Shown: piece by piece, positions 1,596 to 63,784 of the stretch
Layout: every line of letters begins with the position of its first letter
Numbering within the stretch: position 1 is the first letter of the stretch
From: Podarcis filfolensis
Taxonomy: Eukaryota
Strand: one strand, 5' to 3'
Assembly (NCBI GenBank): GCA_964270895.1
Contig: OZ185440.1
Length of the DNA: 64,000 bases
Program-made: the position numbers and the translations under genes
The notes under the pieces: generated by a model
The model's database searches: none
Told to the model about the DNA's origin: nothing
The model's input: the letters and a program-made list of their open reading frames with translations, nothing else

Positions 1596-1861
1596 ACTAT
1601 AGAGCACAATTCTAAACTGCATTCAAAAAAACCATGGTGAAGTCTTTGCTTGTTTGATTTCTTGTTTATTTGTAGGTATGGGGTGCACAACTCTGCTTGT
1701 GAAGAAAGTTCGAGGCAAGTTATTAGCCTGGGGAACTTGTCACGGAGCAAGGGGAAGTCGTGAAGTAATGCACCCCACACCTACAAATAAACAAGAAATC
1801 AAACAAGCAAAGACTTCACTACATTGTTTTTTTAATGCAGTTTTGCATTGTGTTCTACAGT
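1596..1861. repeat. Long inverted repeat (foldback/MITE-like), ~92-bp arms with 81-bp spacer
   Basis: 1596-1687 is the near-exact reverse complement of 1769-1861, including an uninterrupted gtgaagtctttgcttgtttgatttcttgtttatttgtaggt block. Confidence 0.85.
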
Positions 1862-2542
1862 CTCCAACTTCAGCATAAGATAACATCAACACAGCTTTCT
1901 GCTAAGCAGCCATTTAAGCTAGGACAAGCATACCAAAGAGCAGGACCGGCCTTACGAGATTCAAAGCAGATGGATTCAATATGTTTTGAGTCTTTTGAAT
2001 GGCATGTGGAGTCTCACTAGTCAGTCCTGCGCGGTGTTAAGATTACTAGCAGACAGTCTGGATTTTGATCCTTGAGTCATAGATGTCAGAATCGGAAGCC
2101 ATGCATGTTCTTTTAGCTTAAATGGCTGAATCTTGATGTGACCAATATAGATGAGCAGTGATGAACTTTAAAGCACAGCCCTCAAGCAATATACTTCATT
2201 TTAGACCCAGAGCAGTTGCACTGATGTGAGTGGAATTATACTGGAATCAGGAGCCTGGAGGAATGTGGCCTACATTCTCAGAATTCATGAGCGGATGTGG
2301 TTGCATTTTTCTTACCCAGTTACTAGGGATTTTCCACCCCCATGAATGAGAAGGGGGGGAAATACATTATTTCTATGATACTGGATTGTTAGCGAGCAGA
2401 AGAAAACCTGGTTCCTAGGGTAATACATGAATTGTGTTGTTTTGAAATTTTAGCATTTTTTTACCTCTCCAGGACAGAACATCTCCATGCTCTCCATTAA
2501 ACAAGAATGAATTAAAGCCAGTCTTGAAGGGGACTAGAGAGA

Positions 2543-2731
2543 CTATTCCTTGGTGGTAGAGCACATGCACTGCATGCAGGCTCATATTGTAGCATCTCTA
2601 GTTAAAAGGATCTGGTAGGCAGCAATGTGAAGGACCTCTGGTCCCTGGAGAGCTGCCATCAGTAAGAACAGACAATACTGCATTAGATGAACAGATAACC
2701 TGACCTGGTATAAGGCAACTTAACTTCCTAT
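2543..2731 (+). mobile_element. Degenerate tRNA-derived SINE (Squam/MIR-like)
   Basis: A-box-like head (ggtagagcacatgc) and a core shared with other old SINE copies in the window (9.5 kb, 56.1 kb). Confidence 0.55.
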
Positions 2732-3404
2732 GTTGCAGGCTAAGTAACTAGTTAAAAGACAAATATGCTCTGGGCAACATTATCCCATTTATGCCACTTT
2801 TATTGCCATGCCTTCCTCCGCCAAATAATCCTGGGGATTTTGTAGCTTGGCAAGTGAGTGGAGAGTTCTCTCTGAAAGATATTGATCTTGCTCTCTCAGA
2901 ACTACAGATCCTAGCATTCCCACATGAGCTACTGAATCTGTGTGTGGTTTGAGCCTGATCTTCTTTGTTTGCCTGCTACGTAAGGTACCAACCTACATAA
3001 AACCTTCAGCCCCAAGAAGTCGCCCTCAGCCTACATACCTCAAATGGCCCCTGGGTGTCTGGAGCCGCCACTCTTAAGATGAAAGAGCTCTCCATCACTT
3101 ACAGGAAAATTCCTTAAGACCTGCTTAAAAGAGCCCCCTGTCTCCCCGCAATTGAGTTCCCCAGGTAGAGATGAGGGAGAAATTTGATTCAGTTTGTATT
3201 TGAAGACGAATCTATCAAATTTCCACATTCCAAAACAATGTGTGGATCGAAACCCAGCTATCCTTTGAAATTCACGCTTATCCTAATTTTGTGATGCATT
3301 TTTTCAGCCAGCGTTTACGAAACTGCATGTATCAGGGAGAGTGTACAAGAAAATGAATACATTAATGGAGGTAACATACAAAAATGCATTCTGTTAGTGG
3401 CATA

Positions 3405-3758
3405 GGTAAAGGTAAAGGGACCCCTGACCATTAGGTCCAGTCGTGGCCGACTCTGGGGTTGCGGCACTCATCTTGCTTTATTGGCCGAGGGAGCCGGCGT
3501 ACAGCTTCCGGGTCATGTGGTCAGCATGACTAAGCCGCTTATGGCGAACCAGAGCTGTGCACAGAAACGCCGTTTCCCTTCCCGCTGGAGCGGTACCTAT
3601 TTATCTACTTGCACTTTGACGTGCTTTCGAACTGCCAGGTTGGCAGGAGCTGGGACCGAGCAACGGGAGCTCACCCCGTCGTGGGGATTCGAACCGCCGA
3701 CCTTCTGATCGGCAAGTCCTAGGCTCTGTGGTTTAACCCACAGCGCCACCCGTGTCCC
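3405..3758 (-). mobile_element. Sauria SINE, full length
   Basis: tRNA-like head GGGACACGGGTGGCGCTGTGGGTT...GGTTCGAATCCC on the minus strand, (ACCTTT)n tail, 11-bp TSD ttagtggcata at 3394-3404 and 3760-3770. Confidence 0.92.
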
Positions 3759-5954
3759 ATTAGTGGCATACATTAGTCCCAAATGTATACAAAAGTATTT
3801 GCACTGAATCCACCTTCTGCCTTGGCCTCACCATGTTTTAAGAGCCCATCACTGAGGATGCCACCAGGGGCAGATGTTGCTGTTTCAAATTTCAGTGGTT
3901 CTCTGTTTGTGGTTCCGCCTCCTCTTGTCACAATGGCAACACCCTGCAGCACCCCCCTTGGCTCGGCACCCAGTGCGAGGTAACTGGTCCCACTTCTCAA
4001 AATCCACCTCTGATGCCACGTCCCAACATAGTGTGCTCCCATTGCTTCCAGCCTGTCGTTGTTAATGTCTGGCCAGGCCCAAAGACTGTATCAGTGGCTC
4101 CTCCTTCTTAACCCTATTTTATGTGCAAAAACACTGCTTCCTTCTTTCATGGACAGGTTGCCATTGACAATGAATCACAGAGGTGCTTAAGTTGTGCCTC
4201 TTCAGAATGTGGAAGAGCTCTGCATTTCAGAAATTATGTCAGCATTTTTGGGAACAAAAAAAAACTGTTGTTTTTTTTAAAAAAAAAATATTTCTTTAAG
4301 AGACCTTTTAGTGCACTGACCTTGTTTCATGGCTCCCCGCCCCAACTCTTCTTTCCTTTAGGGGATTTCTGTCAGGTTGCTTTAACACTTTACTTCACTT
4401 CAGCTGTAGCCTAGAAATTTTTCAGATGGAAATAGCCCAGTCCTTCCAGAAGAAGCTTATTTTAAAAAAAACAAAGCTATTCTGCTTTCTTATTTCATAA
4501 GATCAATTCTTAAGGACTCACCAAATAACGCATATGAAAATAAAGACAGTTATATAAAAATGCTTCATAGACAGCCAACGTGCATAGCAAAATATTTAAG
4601 CCTTTTAAAAAAATAACCTGCATGTTTCCCATTAGTCCTCACAAAATCCCTTTGTAGTGCCATTTGTGAATGGGAAACTAAGGCTGTGACGGCCTTGTGT
4701 GCATTGAAAATAAACTTTCTTCTGCTCTATGTGGTGTCGATTCACTGCATTGTGGTCATGATTCAGGCAAATGTACACATTTTTAAGTCTCATTGAATTT
4801 CAATGGAAGAGACTAATCAGAAAGCCAGCCCTCTGATGTAAAATTGTAAAATTGGCATTATTACAGTGTCCCAGCTAGGAGTGCATCAAATAACCCGCAG
4901 GTTTACTTTTCAGGCCCAAATCAGCCATTTTTGTGTCGTAGAATCCCCACACACTTTCACTTAGCCTGGAAGTACATGTTGTGTTGTCTTTAGTTTGATA
5001 TTCTGCAATACTAATTTCTGAAACTTTCCCGTCCTTCAGCAACCCCTCACCCTAAAAAAATCAGATGGACATCTTATTCTGACTATGTTTTTCAGCACAT
5101 GAGACGTCATAAACTACTGATACACATTTAAGATGTGTTTGTCTTATATGGATATAAACTTCCTTAGAATGTTATTTCAGAGTTGTGATATGGGTCACTC
5201 CTCTTGGATCACATTAACAATTGAAAGTTCAACCAGGGAGGTGATGGCTCCGCTTTAGATGAAATAATCCAGAATGAGACGTGTGTGATCTTTCCTATAG
5301 ACTTTCAGAGATTGTCTGATAGAAGATACTGTCAAAATGTGCTGTGGACTCTTGTTATTACCAAATCTTCTGCCGTCTGATTTTGCTTTGCTCACTTAGT
5401 TCTCTGGTACGTGCTGCTAGACAGCTACTTGCGTTATCTAGATGCACAAAGCACTTTTTGTGCAAGGACTGACTCACAGCAAAAAATGCCAGTTAGAATA
5501 TTTTCCTCAGGAATGCACTGGAGCTTGGCTTACAAAGTCTGAAAATGAAATCAAGTGAAATAGGTCAAACCCGGAACTATGTGTCCTTATGCGTCCTCGT
5601 GTCCTCTTTTTGCAACAGAGCACATAGTTTTGCCCAAACTTTGAAAGCTACTTTGATTTCCTTAATTGCCTTGGTCTGTGCTTGTCTTGCCTATATGCCA
5701 AAGACTGTCTGCTTGCAACATTGTCCTTTAGTATTAGCTATCGCATTTAAACAACCGAGTCTCTTCTTTCAATGAACAACAAACAAACCCAAAACCTCAC
5801 AATGTGTACAATGTGCTGACACTTAGCAGTGGGGCTGTCAAAATCACTCCTGTGTTAACAATTAATTTGAATGTCCCTTGAGAGACATAGGGCTGGTTGA
5901 ACAAAGATTGAGTGCATGGGTTACACTGAACCAGATCATTGGTAATCTAGGTTA

Positions 5955-10702: not shown

Positions 10703-11672
10703 AAGGAAGGCATCATGACACCTGGGGTGTCGCTACATATGACGCATGCGCCGTACGTAGTGACGCCACAGATGCGCTGTACATAGCGGTTTGCCGGTGG
10801 CGCCACTTTGGTGCTGTACAGACAGTGCCGGGATCCTCTGCTCGCGGCTGCAGCCTCGAATGGAGGATCCTCCATTCGCGGTTGTAGCTGCGACAGAGGG
10901 ATCCCGGCACAGTCCATACGGTGCTGGAGCACCGGCACCGGCAAACCGCTATACAGCGCATGTGCGGCGTTGCTACGTACAGTGCATGCGTGCGACGCCT
11001 CACATGCTCTGTACTTAGCGGTTTGCCACCGGTGCCAGGATCCTCTGCTCATGGCTGCAGCCGCGAACGGAGGATCCTCCACATGCGGCTGCGGTGCGAT
11101 GGCTGCTCGCGCCACAGCGAGCTCCCACGGGGTGACTTCTTTTTTATTATTTTTTAATACAATTTTTATTAGTTTTTTTTTAACATATCATTTTCAACAG
11201 TAATTAAACATACTTTTATATCTTATTCAAATTTTTGACTTCCATCAATCCTGTCTGAAAATTTTCCAATCTAATCTCTCAGTATGCATTTCTTATCTTC
11301 CCTATTACATTTCAAACTCATAACCAATATCTCTATCTTTTTCTACTTTGTAACACTTTGTATATTTCTCCTTACAAAACTTCTTGTAGTCCTACTAGCG
11401 TAATTTGTTGATTACAGTTGCTCTTCAAATAATTCATATACTTCTTCCAATCTTCTGTAAATCTCTGGTCCCGCAGGTTTCGAATCCTTCCTGCCATTTT
11501 GTCCAATTCTGCATAGTCCATTAATTTCATCTGCCATTCTTCTTTCGTCGGAATTTCTTCTTGTTTCAATTTCTGGGCTCCACGGGGTGACTTCTTGTCA
11601 CCCCCACAGACATGGAACCCGGGGCGCCCCGCGCCCCGCCCCCCGCCCCCGCCCTCCGTTGCGATGCCACTG
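10703..11672. mobile_element. CpG-rich probable non-autonomous DNA transposon with alternating inverted internal units, interrupted by an L1
   Basis: Right end ...gttgcgatgCCACTG (CAGTGG-type terminus), gtcacccc subterminal motif, three related units in +/-/+ orientation. Left terminus and TSD not found. Confidence 0.55.
11142..11579 (-). mobile_element. L1-clade LINE, 5'-truncated
   Basis: QKLKQEEIPTKEEWQMKLMDYAELDKMAGRIRNL...EDWKKYMNYLK ORF2 end, A-rich tail, 17-bp TSD ccacggggtgacttctt at 11125-11141 and 11580-11596. Confidence 0.92.
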
Positions 11673-20253: not shown

Positions 20254-21182
20254 CACCTGCACACCACCCAGTTCTGTTTACAGTGTATGGCCGAGCCACA
20301 CCTAGAGGAATCATCTGTACTATTTTTGTCCTTTTTATTGCCCTAGCTGCCTTTTCGTGGTGAACTCTGAGATGATTTCAAGCTACCTTCTCAGAACTCT
20401 CATCCAAATTGGTTGGTTCTTTTGAAAATGTGGCCTTGTGTCTTGTCAACAGGAGTAGGACTGCTTCTGGAGAGGACAGTGGTTCATTCTGTGCACACTG
20501 AGGTCTTTCAGAAATGTTTACTTGGGCAAGCGCTTACAGAGCATGCTCAGATGTGGGTTCTTCCCCCACCCCCCGACTCCCCTGTGCCATAGCTTTATTA
20601 ACAGCAACACATTTCTTATGGAGCCTTTCCCCCAGCATTTTGAAGGCCAGCAGTTCAAAAAGTACTTTGGCTAAAATCCTACACAGACTTACTATGGAGT
20701 AAGACCCACTGAATTCAGTGTGGTTTACTAGTGCCAAGTCAACATGCAAAAGAGTTGGTCTTCATAGCCAGATGTGGACAGTCACTTTTCAGTATTAGCT
20801 TATCCAGCATACTTTTTATTGCACTTTTACGATGATTTGGGATAATGTTGCTGTTGGGTTGGTCATACAGTACATGATCCCACTTTCAATACTATTTGCA
20901 CCTGCCAAATTTCAGGGGCAGTCACAGTGCTTCATTTCCAATCAGTGTATATCCCTTAACTTCCTGCTGAAATCCCATAACTTTTTATGCCACAAATGTT
21001 CAGGTTTTCGTCCCACTTTTTTGCACTATGGGCATATCCACCCTTACTTTTTTTTTTTTTTTGCTCAGGAGCTTTCCCCACAAAAACCAACTCTTTAAAG
21101 CTCAGTCAGAGCAAACAGCAATTCATATAAAACCTGAATTGATGTTTGCTCTGATTGAGAGCTAAACAGCAGGTTTTTGTGG

Positions 21183-21976
21183 TTCGAGGAACCGATCCCC
21201 ACTTGGAGGAATAAAGACACGTGGACACAGTGTATAAGGTTAATGGGCAAGAAAAGGCCACAACTTTATTGATTACAGCAAGTGAGAAGGTATTGGCTTA
21301 GGCATTGGACCACGGAGGATTTGACTCCACCCACTCAGAGAGGGGTGAGTCTGAAGAGGGGTTAACCACCAGTAGGGGGAGCCTGTTGATGCTAATACAA
21401 CTATAAGCTCTCCCCTGATGTCACCGAGGGTCGTGCCATGGCCCCCTGCCACATAGGCATCGGACAGGATCCACGACCACCGGATTCCTTTAACGGAATA
21501 CCCAAATTAGAAGGGGTAGGCGATGGCCACACCTTGCCCTTCCACACATCAACAACACATTCCAATGCCTAACTGCCAAATACCAAGAAAGTTGTGACGA
21601 TTGCTACGAGGTAGGCGAAAAAACCCAAAGGCCGGTGCCAATTTGCCAGTTGGAAAAAATTCCTACCAGGCCCCCTGGGCAACCTGGGCGACCAACCATA
21701 GGCCCATAGCAAGGTCAAGAGAAAAGCTAAGCCCTAAGCCTAAGGGAGTGGTGAGTGGGTGACTCGCGGCGAAAAGGTGAGCAAATGGGCGGAATGGCTG
21801 GCGCGGCTGCATCTTGAGCAGCAAACCACACCCCCGCCAAGCCACCCGGTTGGGCGCTCAACCGGGGGCGTGGCGCGCCAGCCATGTGAATGGAGCAGGG
21901 GGCATAACGCCCCCTGCATGACACAGGAATCGTCTCCCGCCCACAACACACACCCCCTCCGGAAGGAGGAGAGGCC
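21183..21976 (-). mobile_element. Solo-LTR-like element, copy 1
   Basis: Shares blocks with 61856-62611 in the opposite orientation (cctggtaggaattttttcca, ctactggtggttaaccc, ccaatgcctaagccaata, caataaagttgtggcc); AATAAA at 21265-21270 on the minus strand. Canonical TG..CA ends not confirmed. Confidence 0.7.
21610..21667 (-). other. ENE-like U-rich internal-loop RNA hairpin (copy 1)
   Basis: GGUAGG-AA-U6-CCAA-CUGGC...GGCCU-UUGGG-U6-CG-CCUACC. Confidence 0.55.
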
Positions 21977-22823
21977 TTGCAGGGGAAGCTCTGAAGCAAA
22001 AAAACAAAACAAAATAAAAATAAAAATGGAACTTTACAATGCAGACCTGTGCCCGGAAAAAGCAGGCTAAAGTTAAGTGTGGATAGCCCTATATCCACTC
22101 TGGGCAGCTATAGTCTGATAGCATGGGGAAAACATTAGAGAACAGCATACAGCAGAATAAATCTGTTCGTATTTGTAATATGATTTCATTGGGAATGTAT
22201 TTCACAAATAATGAATGGTATTGGGAAAGGAGATAGCAGTTGGCAATTGGCAGGTTATTTCTGTTAGTTCTGTCTTGACTGTGAAGGTAAGAGGTGTGAG
22301 GACTTCATGCAGATGCTGTCCGGAGGAGTTTTGTAAATAATACTTGTTGTTCAACTGTTACCAACATGTCAAGTAAAAAGATTTCTCTTCAGCTATTTGC
22401 GTAAGGCAGAGAGAGAGATGTATCACAAATAGCTAACAAAATCTACCACACTAACACACTATTATTGTGTCAGGAACATGTCCAGAACACACCCATAACA
22501 AAACACTAGTTTGGAGGGCCCTCCATAAATTAAAAGCAATAAAATCATTTCTACAATTGTGCAATTAGTTTGTGACACTAGTTGCACTATTGCTCAAATA
22601 CATGATTTGCCCTTATAATCATTATCATATGTTGCCATATTATTCAGTTGCAAAGTATTGTTGAAGAGCACAAGAGGGTTGGGGGATTTTTTGCTCCCCG
22701 AGGTGCTATAAGTCTTTAATTTAATCAGAATCAAATAAGAATCCAGAGGTTTGATCCAGCATGTTTTAAACTGGCAACCTGACAGTCATCATCAGTAAAT
22801 TAAGAAAAGTGTATCTTCTCACA

Positions 22824-27443: not shown

Positions 27444-27758
27444 TACTACCACCTTACCACATGGGCCATTCCTGGTGTGCCACTTCCTTCAAGTATTTTG
27501 TACCTGCACGACAAAATCAAGATTAAAAATCAGCCAAACAGCAGCACCAACATAATCTGATCCATTTTCCCTGCCAACCCACAAAAGCACAAGGTGATAC
27601 CCCGTGTTAGCATTGCTCAGAGCAGACCCACTGAAATGAATGTATTGCAATAACAAGTCCACTGATTTGAAGAGATCTCCACTGAGATTAATTGAATATC
27701 AAGCCTACTTTTTTGTTTTTTGCAAGTTTTGCTAAATGCCTATAAAATCAATTTTATG

Positions 27759-29141
27759 AAGAAAGATCTAGAGATATGGTCAAACCTGAAGCTTTCCTTG
27801 TTGGGAAGAATTGCGGCTATAAAGATGAATGTATTGCCAAGGATGTTATTTTTGTTTCAATCTTTGCAAATTGTGGACAAGATGGACTGTTTCAAGAAGT
27901 GGCAGAAGGATATTTCTAGATTTGTCTGGCAGGGCAAGAAGCCTAGAATAAAATTTAAAATACTAACCGATGTAAGAGAAAGAGGTGGTTTCGCCCTGCC
28001 AGACCTGAAACTCTATTATGAATCGGCCGCATTTTGCTGGCTGAAAGAATGGCTGCTTCTTGAAAACACAGACATTTTGGATTTAGAAGGTTTTAATAAC
28101 GTTTTTGGGTGGCATGCATATCTGTGGTACGACAAGGTCAAAGCTCATAAAGCATTTAAAAACCATATTGTCAGGAAAGCATTGTTTAACGTCTGGTTAA
28201 GATATAAAGACTTATTGGAGAACAAAACTCCAAGGTGGTTGTCACCAATGGAGGCAAAGGCACTTAAAAAGTCCAATATGGAGGCCAAATGGCCGAAATA
28301 TTGGGAAATATTGGAACAAGAAGGAGATAAATTGAAATTGCAGAGTTTTGAGAAATTAAAAGATAAGGTGCGAGATTGGCTGCACTATTTTCAAATAAGA
28401 GAAGCCTATAACATGGATAAAAAAATAGGTTTCCAGGTGGAAAAATCAAAATTGGAAACTGAGTTGTTAGAACCCAAAACTAAAATACTTTCAAGAATGT
28501 ATAACTTGCTGCTAAAATGGAATACGCAGGATGAAACAGTTAAATCTGCTATGATTAAATGGGCACAAGATGTTGGTCATAACATCATGTTTGCTGACTG
28601 GGAACGGTTGTGGACCACAGGTATGAAATTTACGGCATGTAATGCCCTAAGAGAGAATATTATGAAAATGATATATAGGTGGTACATGACACCAGTCAAG
28701 CTTGCAAAAATCTACCATTTGCCTGACAATAAATATTGGAAGTGTAAAGAAAGTGAAGGAACATTCTTTCACCTTTGGTGGACATGCCCAAAGATTAAGG
28801 CTTTCTGGGAGATGATATATAACGAAATGAAAAAAATTTTTAGATATACATTCCTTAAGAAGCCAGAGGCCTTTCTCTTGGGCATGGTGGGCCAATTGGT
28901 GCCAAAGAAAGATAGAAATTTCTTTATGTACGCAACAACAGCAGCAAGAATTCTCATCGCAAATTATTGGAAGACACAAGAGCTACCCACCCTGGAAGAA
29001 TGGCAGATGAAGCTGATAGACTATATGGAATTGGCGGAAATGACTGACAGAATCCGAGACCTGGGAGAAGAGTTGGTGGAAGAAGACTGGAAGAAATTTA
29101 AAGACTATCTTCAGAAATACTATAAAATTAATGAGTGTTAA
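27759..29141 (+). CDS. L1 ORF2 C-terminal portion (post-RT region with Cys/His zinc-binding motif); truncated
   Basis: WSNLKLSLLGRIAAIKMNVLPRMLFLFQ...GGFALPDLKLYY...WKCKESEGTFFHLWWTCPKIKAFW. The first 13 codons of the listed ORF are flank/TSD, not element. Confidence 0.85.
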   Translation, partial: KKDLEIWSNLKLSLLGRIAAIKMNVLPRMLFLFQSLQIVDKMDCFKKWQKDISRFVWQGKKPRIKFKILTDVRERGGFALPDLKLYYESAAFCWLKEWLLLENTDILDLEGFNNVFGWHAYLWYDKVKAHKAFKNHIVRKALFNVWLRYKDLLENKTPRWLSPMEAKALKKSNMEAKWPKYWEILEQEGDKLKLQSFEKLKDKVRDWLHYFQIREAYNMDKKIGFQVEKSKLETELLEPKTKILSRMYNLLLKWNTQDETVKSAMIKWAQDVGHNIMFADWERLWTTGMKFTACNALRENIMKMIYRWYMTPVKLAKIYHLPDNKYWKCKESEGTFFHLWWTCPKIKAFWEMIYNEMKKIFRYTFLKKPEAFLLGMVGQLVPKKDRNFFMYATTAARILIANYWKTQELPTLEEWQMKLIDYMELAEMTDRIRDLGEELVEEDWKKFKDYLQKYYKINEC

Positions 29142-60446: not shown

Positions 60447-61855
60447 TCTTCTTCATATATTTTGAGTTTGAGAAATTGACTCTATTGAAGCCATCCGTTT
60501 GCATAAACAACTTGACTATCTTCTTGCCATATCCAATCTAAAACCACTGTAATAATGTGAAACCTTGTTTATTTCAAGCTCGCAATATTTACCAATGCAA
60601 ACCATACCCAAATGGTAGTCTGAAACTTCCTTACCAATTCTTTCCTTTCCTTTATTTTTATTTTTTTCAAACAGGCTTCTCTGTTAGAAAGATATATTCA
60701 CATATAATTCAATGTGGCTTGTTTAAAACTGTACAGTTGGTAGCTTAATATATATTTTTTGTATTTGGAGTACAAAGGCTATATTATGCTTTTGTTGGCA
60801 TCCTTGCTAGTCCGCATGCCAGCGGCATAATTTTCTTCTCTGCAATATGTCAGGCTCTGAGTGCCGAGGGCTCAACAGGTGGCGGTTGGATAAAGTTCTG
60901 GCAAATCAAATAGGTAATGTGGTTATTTCTTTTGTCAAATTATAATTAGAAGCAGATCGGAGTCAAAATGAAACTCATATTTTTTTGCTGGTCCAAACAG
61001 AGTGTGAAATTAAATACAATCAGTTTCTATGACAAAGGCACATCACTGTAGAAGTTTGTTCCTTGTACAAATGTAACCACCTTAACTTTGATCAGGAATC
61101 ATGCTAATACTTGTACAGTTCTCAGCATAAAAAGATATCAGCATCAATATTAAGGATACTTTAAAAAACCCCACCATTTTACTCTACCAGGATTTTCTTT
61201 CAAGCATGCTTCACTTGCCTCCTCGGTGCTTATCTGGAAAAGTCTTCTCCCAACCCTCTGCCTTCAGGCATGTACCGCCTTATAATTTGAATCCCAGTGA
61301 TAGCTTGTTTTTATCGTGTACAGTGGTGGTTGGTTCCCCACCATTGAATGAGTGCCTCTAAAATATCTATTTCACTTTTCCTATGTGAACATGAATTGTG
61401 GGAATGAGTCACCCAAAGCCAGACAGTAGGACTGTGGCAGAAAATCCTTACATACAATCAATCCTTGGCTTACTTTTAATAAAGAAATGCTTCTTCTTGT
61501 TGCTTAATGTGATTCAGCCAATCAGGGATCATATAATCAGTGAGATGGCACTGTAGTGATATGTAGCCAATCAGATTTTGTTATATAATTGTGTCATAAA
61601 GCCAAATAAGAGTGAGATCAATGCTTTCTAATCTCACTGGTAAAAAAAAAAAATTGCTCTGTTTTGCAGGCCCATGAACTTTTGCCTAAAGGGGCAGAAA
61701 CAAATTTCACAGAGTATTTTGTTCACTGGTTTATTGAAATGACCCATCTCCTTCATTCTGTTTCATCCCTTTGGTTCATCCATAATGCAGATTAAGAACT
61801 AAAGCGGAAATGAGAGGATCTGGGCCATGGTTAGGTAAAGCCACTTCCGAACTAG

Positions 61856-62611
61856 TGAGGAGGTGGAGTTGTGGGCTTCACACCCCCTCCATGTCTGCGG
61901 GAGCTGGCCCTCAGCCTCCACGCGATTGAGGGAATCCCCGGCCGCGTCATCCCCTGGCCAGCCAATCGGCTGGCTTGGGGGGAGTGGCCTGGGCTATTTA
62001 GCCCCAGCACGGCCAGGGATCTCCCTCTTTTGCCGCTGCAGCTGCTCCGGTTTCCTACCCTCCCGCCCTTTAAGGTTTTCCTTTGTCCTTGCGATGGACC
62101 TTGGTTGGTCGTTGTTAAGGGGCCTGGTAGGAATTTTTTCCACTTGGCAAATTGGCACCAGCCACTTGGTTTTTCACCTACCTCGTAGCAAATCATCAAA
62201 ACTTCCTTGGATTGGTGGTTAGGGATTGGTATGGGTATTGTTATGTAGATGAAGGGGGAGGGTAGTCCGACAAAGGGTAGTCCATACTGAAGGGTAGTCT
62301 GATAAAAGATTGGGGGGGGCATGGCCCTGTCCGAAGCTTGAGGTGAGGGCCTAAGGCATGCCCCCGAGCAGTGACCCCAGGGGAGTTCCGAGTTGATGTG
62401 CATCAGCAGGACTCCCTCTACTGGTGGTTAACCCTTCCCGGACTTCATGCAATCAGGCTGAAGCCGGATAGTCGGTTAGGACCAATGCCTAAGCCAATAG
62501 CGCTCATCACCTGTAACCAATAAAGTTGTGGCCAATTTTTGCCCCTTAACCTAAAATAACTGTGTCATGTGTCATTATTTCCACCGGGGGGAGGCGGGAA
62601 CTAGCCACGCA
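61856..62611 (+). mobile_element. Solo-LTR-like element, copy 2
   Basis: CCAAT 61962-61966, TATTTA 61995-62000, AATAAA 62519-62524; block homology to 21183-21976. gaactag occurs at 61849-61855 and 62598-62604 (possible TSD). Confidence 0.7.
62126..62182 (+). other. ENE-like U-rich internal-loop RNA hairpin (copy 2)
   Basis: GGUAGG-AA-U6-CCA-CU-UGGC...GCCA-CU-UGG-U5-CA-CCUACC. Confidence 0.55.
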
Positions 62612-63784
62612 AAAAGTCTGTCTGTTGCTGTCTGATGCTAAACCATTAAGGGATCCTGCACCATACATTCCTGCCTGGAAGAATTTTGATGGAAGAAGAT
62701 AACTTACTCTTCCTATTGCTCCAGGACTCCACCCTGCAAACACGAATACAGCACAAAGTGTACTTTGGCATGTGCTGAACATTCAATACATGCGGAATAA
62801 TCACCAGTCATCAAGCACAATCAAAACCTATTTATCTGGGAATAGGGAGGAAGGGAGAGCATCCCAGCTTGATGTGCATGATTTCTCATATCTCTTTTTA
62901 GAAATGAAACTGGGGACCAAATGGGGAGGGGATTGGGATGGGCAAGGAGGACCTCCCCAGAAACAGGGGAGGAAAGTGAAAGAGTAACAGGCTAGATCAG
63001 TAGTTCCCAAACTGTGGTCTACAGAGCACCAGTAATCTCCGAGCATCATTCAGGTGGTCTGCAGCTTGTCTGTGAATAATGGCAGAAGCAGGAGCTGTGA
63101 ATTTCAGGCACAGTGGCTGCTCTGTTGTTCTTGGGACCTAGCAGTCCTCCCAGACAGACTCAACAGGCACATCCATTGTGTTTAATATCCATACCGATTT
63201 GTTGTTGTATTCTTATTGCTTCTTCTGTTTCTTATATATTGTATATTATGGTCTTACAATTTGAATTCCATATTCAAATGGAAAATTCAAATTGTGATAC
63301 AATAAAATGCAGTATGTAAGAAATAAAGAGAGCGATAATTAAAAAAAATACAATCTATGACAAATAAAAGAAGCTATAAAAATTAGAAATCATCCATCGC
63401 AGAAATTGCTATAACAGGCAGTTTGGGAATCACTGGACTAGATATATTGGAGAATCCAGAAGAAGGAAAATCAGGGTGGTAGAAGGTTATGGCTCAGAAA
63501 AGGTAACTGGACAGAAAGGCTAGAAAAGTAAGTTATATTTATGAGTAGGTCTTGAGAAGAAACATGATTTTGGCAGCAGTATTTCTGGAGGGAGGGGGAC
63601 TATAGCTTGGGGTGCAATGCAGCAAGCATGATCTTTAGGGACAGCTAGGAAGGAAGACACAAGCCTTCATCCCAATTAGCCCTTTCCCCCCTGCCCTTGC
63701 CAATTCTTTGCCCTTACTGTGAACCAAAACCCATCTGTAACCAAAGTTTCCACTGCTGCTTTGGCAGACAATGAAAAAAAGAAA

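Follow-up and report, generated by a model that had tools for sequence, protein, structure and literature searches.

An ENE-like hairpin in the unique spacer of a Ngaro tyrosine-recombinase retrotransposon from a lizard

The hairpin and the element that carries it

The window, a stretch of 64,000 nucleotides of Podarcis filfolensis DNA, had been predicted to contain an ENE-like, poly(A)-clamping hairpin within an LTR-like repeat. The locus raises two questions: which kind of mobile element carries this hairpin, and what its two opposed U runs do for the RNA of that element. The sequence at 62126-62182 reads GGTAGG-AA-TTTTTT-CCA...TGG-TTTTT-CA-CCTACC. Its minimum-free-energy fold is the ENE-like architecture described, with two opposed U runs in an internal loop between stems (-15.9 kcal/mol, z -2.46, 6 of 200 shuffles equally good). 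The upper stem begins with two C-G pairs, and its apical portion is variable in length. A second copy at 21610-21667 is present as the original prediction had it, but it lies on the minus strand, which had gone unstated; it folds at -16.4 kcal/mol (z -1.08, 29 of 200 shuffles equally good). The folding energy is modest and strand-blind: for the first copy, the antisense strand gives -18.5 kcal/mol (z -2.90). A motif detector that calls for two runs of at least 5 U, G-C flanks and a lower stem of at least 6 bp, and that was built after the motif had been seen, matches only the two hairpin sites within the window and nothing in 100 block-wise dinucleotide shuffles. The hairpin region is also among the best-conserved parts in the alignment of the window's two repeats. 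The hairpin pattern has 5,242 exact matches in the genome, compared with 0 for a reversed control; the hairpin exists in at least 5,242 copies in this genome. The hairpin at 62126-62182 is confirmed by its sequence, its fold, the detector and the genome count.

The repeat around the hairpin belongs to a Ngaro tyrosine-recombinase retrotransposon, of which it is a solo A-X-B unit; the full element has the order A1-gag-RT-YR-SGNH-B1-A2-X-B2. A DNA search of the genome with the window repeat returned 4,296 first-look candidates, 40 of which were scored. The units are ~780–800 bp long and have sharp ends (termini of 30 copies). Neither TG..CA ends nor a target-site duplication was found in 60 copies whose ends and flanks were checked by eye; an LTR retrotransposon or the solo LTR of an ERV was rejected on this ground, and the label 'LTR-like' proved wrong. 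A pattern for the end-to-start (B/A) junction of the unit has 20 matches and its control 0, and only the 3' part of a unit lies upstream of most of these matches. In the long elements, B1, A2 and B2 come after ORFs for a gag-like protein, RT, tyrosine recombinase and SGNH hydrolase, and this layout identifies the window copies as solo units of a Ngaro retrotransposon. Their A pairs and B pairs are 94–100% identical.

In the Pfam scan, RVT_1 matches three of three RT ORFs (E 5.6e-13 to 2e-12). Phage_integrase matches the L228 element above the cut-off (E 2e-06) and two others below it, while L090 shows a SAM-domain match only. Lipase_GDSL_2 matches three of three SGNH ORFs (E 5.6e-07 to 2.3e-04), each below the Pfam cut-off. 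A methylase domain, which would mark PAT, has 0 matches in 12 ORFs scanned against general Pfam profiles, and a PDB search with one YR ORF returned no match. The closest named hydrolase proteins come from Podarcis and are 48–64% identical, as expected for a lizard. The window's two solo units are 62% identical to each other and belong to separate subfamilies. Their features are as follows.

61837-62612, plus strand: solo A-X-B unit of Ngaro; ends AAAGCC ... CGCAA
61837-62053, plus strand: A repeat, ~215 nt; 3' end placed from the A1/A2 boundaries of related long elements
62054-62212, plus strand: spacer X; a single one per element, separating A2 from B2, and none behind A1 or ahead of B1
62089-62096, plus strand: 5' strand of P0, the predicted closing helix; one change in the window copy
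62126-62182, plus strand: ENE-like hairpin with a lower stem of 6 bp and an internal loop of AA+U6 / U5+CA
62184-62191, plus strand: 3' strand of P0, CGTAGCAA; best-conserved block of the unit
62195-62204, plus strand: 5' strand of the predicted tether helix; decayed in the window copy, with two mismatches
62213-62612, plus strand: B repeat, ~400 nt, holding the poly(A) signal, a GU-rich stretch downstream of it and, as recombination end, CGCAA
62219-62229, plus strand: 5' strand of the long-range B helix; one mismatch in the window copy
62482-62492, plus strand: 3' strand of the long-range B helix, CCAATGCCTAA; closes ~270 nt of B
62519-62532, plus strand: AATAAA (62519-62524), candidate poly(A) signal, overlapping the tether 3' strand (62523-62532)
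21177-21978, minus strand: second solo A-X-B unit, of another subfamily, from sequence comparison
21610-21667, minus strand: ENE-like hairpin of the second unit, from sequence and fold
21589-21598 and 21257-21266, minus strand: tether strands of the second unit
21265-21270, minus strand: AATAAA of the second unit

The A repeat (61837-62053) is a putative promoter, with CCAAT at 61962-61966 and a TATA-like TATTTA at 61995-62000. The 5' strand of the tether, decayed in the first window copy, is intact in the second window copy and in young elements.

Exactly one hairpin, always between A2 and B2, is found in each of 18 long elements that were chosen for carrying both B1 and B2. A1 was found in 15 of these elements, and there its match always stops short of X. 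Only transcripts that continue past B1 or are initiated at A2 therefore carry the hairpin. Among 52 copies picked by the B motif alone, the hairpin is intact in 21 and carries point changes in 12 (by eye); five others are B1 repeats behind the hydrolase and have no hairpin, 13 are cut short or show no X in the stretch examined, and one is unrelated. The distance from the hairpin to AAUAAA is 330–354 nt in four copies and shrinks to ~62–67 nt once the B helix is closed. In the L228 element (2975-3050), X opens with three tandem pyrimidine-tract/CAG motifs that resemble splice acceptors, the last of which is followed by a donor-like GTATG.

Selection on base pairing and the larger predicted fold

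Searches with the hydrolase reached lineages whose units are only 44–53% identical to the window family, and the hairpin is kept in all of them. Covariation was weak in a first set of 23 copies (17/500 shuffles). In a blind test, the genome was searched by the 3' arm alone (949 matches), and 40 of 100 listed matches were taken, favouring uncommon variants. A 5' arm was parsed in 33 of the 40 copies and none in the remaining seven. Stem pair 4, which is U-A in the window family, is paired in 31 of these 33, as C-G in 19, A-U in nine and U-G in three. The lower stem of 32 hand-picked copies is 92% paired, with a double change in four of seven pairs and a covariation score that was reached by 0 of 500 shuffles, although kinship among the copies inflates such scores. 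Visual reading of the B-repeat tree suggests that compensatory changes arose independently four times or more. As judged from these alignments, the lower stem is under selection for base pairing. Whole lineages carry G-U pairs that would be A-C mismatches on the other strand, which points to sense-strand RNA. The strand of the hairpin is also that of the element ORFs and AATAAA, and the refuting condition set by the original prediction, transcription from the opposite strand only, was not borne out.

The pairs of the lower stem nearest the loop (two G-C and one A-U) are almost invariant. These lower G-C pairs are kept in 128/133 and 132/133 cores but stand 1–2 nt off the U runs, whereas the G-C pair on the upper side adjoins the loop. 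The extra nucleotides between the U runs and the lower-stem G-C are AA or AG on one side and CG, G or CA on the other. In the upper stem, the first C-G pair is present in 23 of 23 copies with no double change, and the length of the apical part varies freely. Both U runs, mostly of 3–7 U, occur in all 133 parsed cores (20 of 153 were unparsed), so that the U tracts are kept family-wide. Their two lengths vary jointly, from 3/3 to 6/7 (Spearman 0.60 over 133 of the 153 cores, the copies not being independent). The window lineage has 5–6 U per side and others, such as L228 and L267, have 3–4; in one common subfamily a G interrupts the 5' U run.

An RNAalifold consensus fold of 16 copies from four lineages returned, unprompted, four helices that correspond to P0, the lower stem, the tether and the B helix. 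Jointly, 97.2% of their cells are paired, a level found in 0 of 500 shuffles. P0 (helix 1) is predicted to join the conserved block that follows the hairpin to a partner ~35–45 nt upstream, with the lower stem stacked alongside; 92.7% of its cells are paired, with a double change in one pair and one-sided changes in three. The tether is a predicted 10-bp helix between the end of X and bases that overlap and follow AAUAAA. The B helix (helix 4) has 12 bp, closes ~270 nt and shows a double change in three pairs. Double changes are thus found in P0, the lower stem and the B helix and are absent from the tether, in which seven of ten pairs never vary; the predicted tether pairing is therefore argued solely from invariance and complementarity. 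Since the tether overlaps the last two A of AAUAAA, it might hinder cleavage. Each element has a single 5' strand of the tether but two partner strands, one after B1 and one after B2, so the tether can form locally only at B2.

The upper stem was not recovered by RNAalifold from the 16 copies, because the apical lengths differ and the stem is misaligned. In folds with 550 nt of context, the probability of the lower stem is ~1.0 in L090 and L228 and 0.06 in L141; for the window copy, whose tether and B helices contain mismatches, it is 0. The window copy is an old solo unit in which these two helices have decayed, and it is probably no longer functional.

Possible roles of the X-B2 fold

We favour the reading that the hairpin is a PAN-type ENE that selectively protects the genome-length RNA, with a probability of roughly 0.55. 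In this role, the two U runs would form U.A-U triples with the poly(A) tail, clamping it and slowing deadenylation. X and B2 would fold into one domain, with the B helix looping out ~270 nt and the 10-bp tether pairing X with the bases just past AAUAAA, such that the tail would start beside the base of the hairpin. The poly(A) signals of B1 and B2 are identical and X lies upstream of B2 only; RNA ending at B1 would remain unprotected, and read-through, genome-length RNA would be stabilised. Since it alone holds the B1/A2 junction needed for rebuilding the ends, the genome-length RNA would have to continue past B1 and terminate in B2. The same protection would extend to a short RNA initiated at A2. 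The architecture fits an ENE, in that the opposed U runs match each other in length, can be longer or shorter, and are bounded by near-invariant G-C pairs. In the Evade ENE, G-C pairs next to its U loop are a requirement (PMC12501189). A textbook PAN ENE, in contrast, forms five triples (PMC7583470); loops of 3+3 U fit it poorly, as do the additional bases at the lower stem.

An extended version, which we hold only tentatively and consider doubtful, is a self-loading ENE: the tether would bring the poly(A) site to the foot of the U loop, only the tail of the genome-length RNA would be clamped, and the clamped 3' end would be the start of reverse transcription. For DIRS-1, the start of cDNA synthesis and its primer are described as unknown (PMC7192593). 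If the self-loading reading is true, a tyrosine-recombinase transposon of a tetrapod has an ENE that names the start signal of its class, and the genome holds thousands of small PAN-like RNA cassettes, each with a promoter, an ENE and a poly(A) site.

The main rival is that the X-B2 fold is a replication signal, its U-U loop and invariant AA/YG being bound by Gag or reverse transcriptase to mark the genome-length RNA for packaging and to set the cDNA start. This is possible but on balance unlikely, and tail clamping could operate alongside it. Among the RNAs of the element, only the genome-length form has the fold at its 3' end, and a 3' hairpin has been suggested for the DIRS order, whose primer is described as unknown (PMC7192593). 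The solo A-X-B units, in thousands, and the 5'-deleted copies that join A1 to mid-element sequence are as expected if copying starts in X-B2, and a 3+3 U loop could suffice for a protein. However, a protein site would more likely fix the loop length, and the joint lengthening of the U runs up to 6/7 is left unexplained.

X might instead select the poly(A) site, with the U runs as an upstream enhancer and the tether setting the accessibility of AAUAAA, such that B2 is favoured over the identical B1. Two identical signals do need a discriminator, and a helix that overlaps AAUAAA and has one 5' strand for two partners could provide it. We nevertheless regard this as improbable, since an unstructured U-rich enhancer needs neither opposed runs nor a covarying stem 330 nt upstream.

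RNA reads bear on the remaining readings. Four raw RNA read runs (6–12% of each, from a species that may differ from that of the window) were compared with the hydrolase-B1-A2-X sequence of the L081 element at 88% likeness. X is covered at a depth of ~5–20 and is joined to B2 without a splice joint in all four runs. X-B2 is transcribed, and the source may be read-through, a start at A2 or host transcripts. At this low depth, no poly(A) end was seen among the loose ends shown, with 57 further ends outside them. In one run, ten reads start 2 nt upstream of the hairpin, preceded by what we take to be a template-switch tag; the variable part of the tagged reads resembles the upstream G run, so they are likely an artefact and were not counted as a 5' end.

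Splice signals are a far less credible explanation of the conserved letters. A GT at 62127 and a pyrimidine tract with AG at 62188 would delimit a 62-nt intron or provide a terminal-exon acceptor; the window reads CTG/GTAGGA and TTTTTCACCTACCTCGTAG/C at these sites, and the AG is nearly invariant. This reading fails because whole lineages (L228, L268 and L267) lack the GT and because the AG sits in helix P0. A 62-nt skip is not listed in any of the four runs at depth ~5–20, and together these points largely refute a micro-intron.

Equally hard to sustain is a self-contained triplex of the MALAT1 type, in which genomic AGCAA(A) would serve as the third strand of a processed, non-polyadenylated end. 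AGCAA is invariant 5 nt past the stem, and triple-helix-plus-mascRNA loci have been reported in dozens of anole transcripts (Zhang 2017, cited in PMC10869381). However, the A run is just 2–4 nt (2 nt in 47/133), its length is anticorrelated with the U length (rho -0.50), and it is paired in P0. ARAGORN found 0 tRNA-like genes in eight loci. Rfam searches at E up to 10 and 5 with the window unit and four divergent copies gave only chance-level miRNA and snoRNA matches and nothing related; a degenerate mimic could be missed by both programs. The reads also continue from X into B2. The short A run and the missing tRNA-like domain led us to reject this type, in line with the original prediction that both an A tract and a tRNA-like domain are absent.

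Least probable of all is that the fold arose by chance or belongs to the antisense cDNA: although the antisense folds as well by energy and DIRS-1 has single-stranded cDNA intermediates (PMC7192593), the compensatory changes effectively refute a chance fold, and the G-U pairs of the sense strand become A-C mismatches on the other.

Comparison with known systems and accompanying observations

By its sequence, the hairpin looks like a single-domain ENE. It shares with the KSHV PAN ENE and single-domain transposon ENEs a U-rich loop, short G-C-rich stems, a downstream poly(A) site and a place in the RNA of a mobile element (PMC7583470; PMC13541005). It differs from those described there in its host, a reptile tyrosine-recombinase retrotransposon, and in its U runs of 3–7, the two extra bases between the loop and the lower stem and the predicted tether to the poly(A) site. 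Transposon ENEs have been reported in plants, fungi, a slime mold and stickleback retroviruses, and the host lists of these ENE reviews name neither Ngaro-class elements nor reptile transposons (PMC7583470; PMC13541005). Among the literature matches listed, none joins Ngaro or DIRS with an ENE, though the locus lists of the primary ENE surveys may overlap with our copies.

Evade (Copia93) of Arabidopsis likewise has a unique spacer, upstream of its 3' terminal repeat, that holds a U-loop hairpin with flanking G-C pairs (PMC12501189). According to that account, Evade is an LTR/integrase element with four U tracts for which a triplex and a boost to mobility have been shown, whereas the lizard Ngaro has one loop and split direct repeats. 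The A1-gag-RT-YR-SGNH-B1-A2-B2 order with near-identical A and B pairs is that of the SGNH Ngaro DIRS-53_XT of Xenopus (PMC9210276), and solo AB repeat units occur in Cafeteria (PMC8547959). In these descriptions the Ngaro termini are given as B1A2B2, with no spacer or RNA structure, whereas the lizard elements have a unique A2-B2 spacer of at least ~160 nt with a conserved fold (PMC9210276, PMC8547959). MALAT1, NEAT1 and the MALAT1-like loci of the anole also have a U-rich loop between two helices and, in the anole, many copies in a lizard genome (PMC10869381; PMC6379651). Compared with MALAT1 and NEAT1 as described (PMC6379651), the Podarcis hairpin lacks a long genomic A tract, the matched C/G interruption and the tRNA-like domain, and a canonical AAUAAA follows it.

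If the preferred PAN-type reading is true, an ENE in a reptile tyrosine-recombinase element widens both the known host range and the element class, and a helix that delivers the tail to the loop is a new ENE design. Natural variants, with 3–7 U per side, provide a graded set for finding the minimal triplex length. Whatever the loop binds, a conserved single-copy RNA domain is exposed at the 3' end of the Ngaro RNA, and the X-B domain offers a handle on how identical poly(A) signals are told apart and on the cDNA start site. With more than 5,000 copies, the hairpin could also affect host RNAs that contain it.

Two wider scans were made. A metagenome scan with the hydrolase alignment gave six loci of 1.0–3.4 kb, none with a model match. 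Three matches of a pattern scan of viral contigs have no hairpin or poly(A) motif and were set aside as chance.

Several further observations concern the element itself. Full-length elements have a long AT-rich leader of 1.4–2.2 kb between A1 and gag (L090, oriented 1619-3777; L337, L345, L349 and L352). In six 5'-deleted elements (L081, L083, L338, L340, L342 and L348), a near-identical A1 of 197–263 nt is fused to mid-element sequence, as expected of a strand jump in reverse transcription. The gag-like ORF of L337 (3644-5185) has a weak match to a ZAP-like CCCH zinc finger (E 2.7e-4, below the cut-off), a candidate for the RNA-binding part that would recognise the X-B fold. Among 95 loci selected by the hydrolase (L141-L266), 38 keep B1-A2-X-B2, 41 are classed as ending exactly at the B1 end, about four of which look miscalled, and 16 are other. 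The B1-ending loci and the thousands of solo A-X-B units suggest that two halves of the element arise or insert separately, possibly by recombination between repeats, by the recombinase acting at the B1/A2 junction or by short-circuit copying. Inverted arms surround the B/A junction, formed by the B end CGCAA/CACAA (62603-62612) and by GTTGYGG ~30 nt into A (61868-61876); they are candidate recombinase sites, and the tether strands resemble this GTTGYGG/CGCAA motif. Many hydrolase-bearing copies are clustered on one 43-Mb contig (C19), as for a repeat-rich chromosome.

Elsewhere in the window, a 481-aa open frame at 27696-29141 (plus strand) is presumably the 3' part of a LINE ORF2. An 85-nt inverted repeat at 10783-10952, which has no spacer and is 74% complementary, lies within a duplicated stretch.
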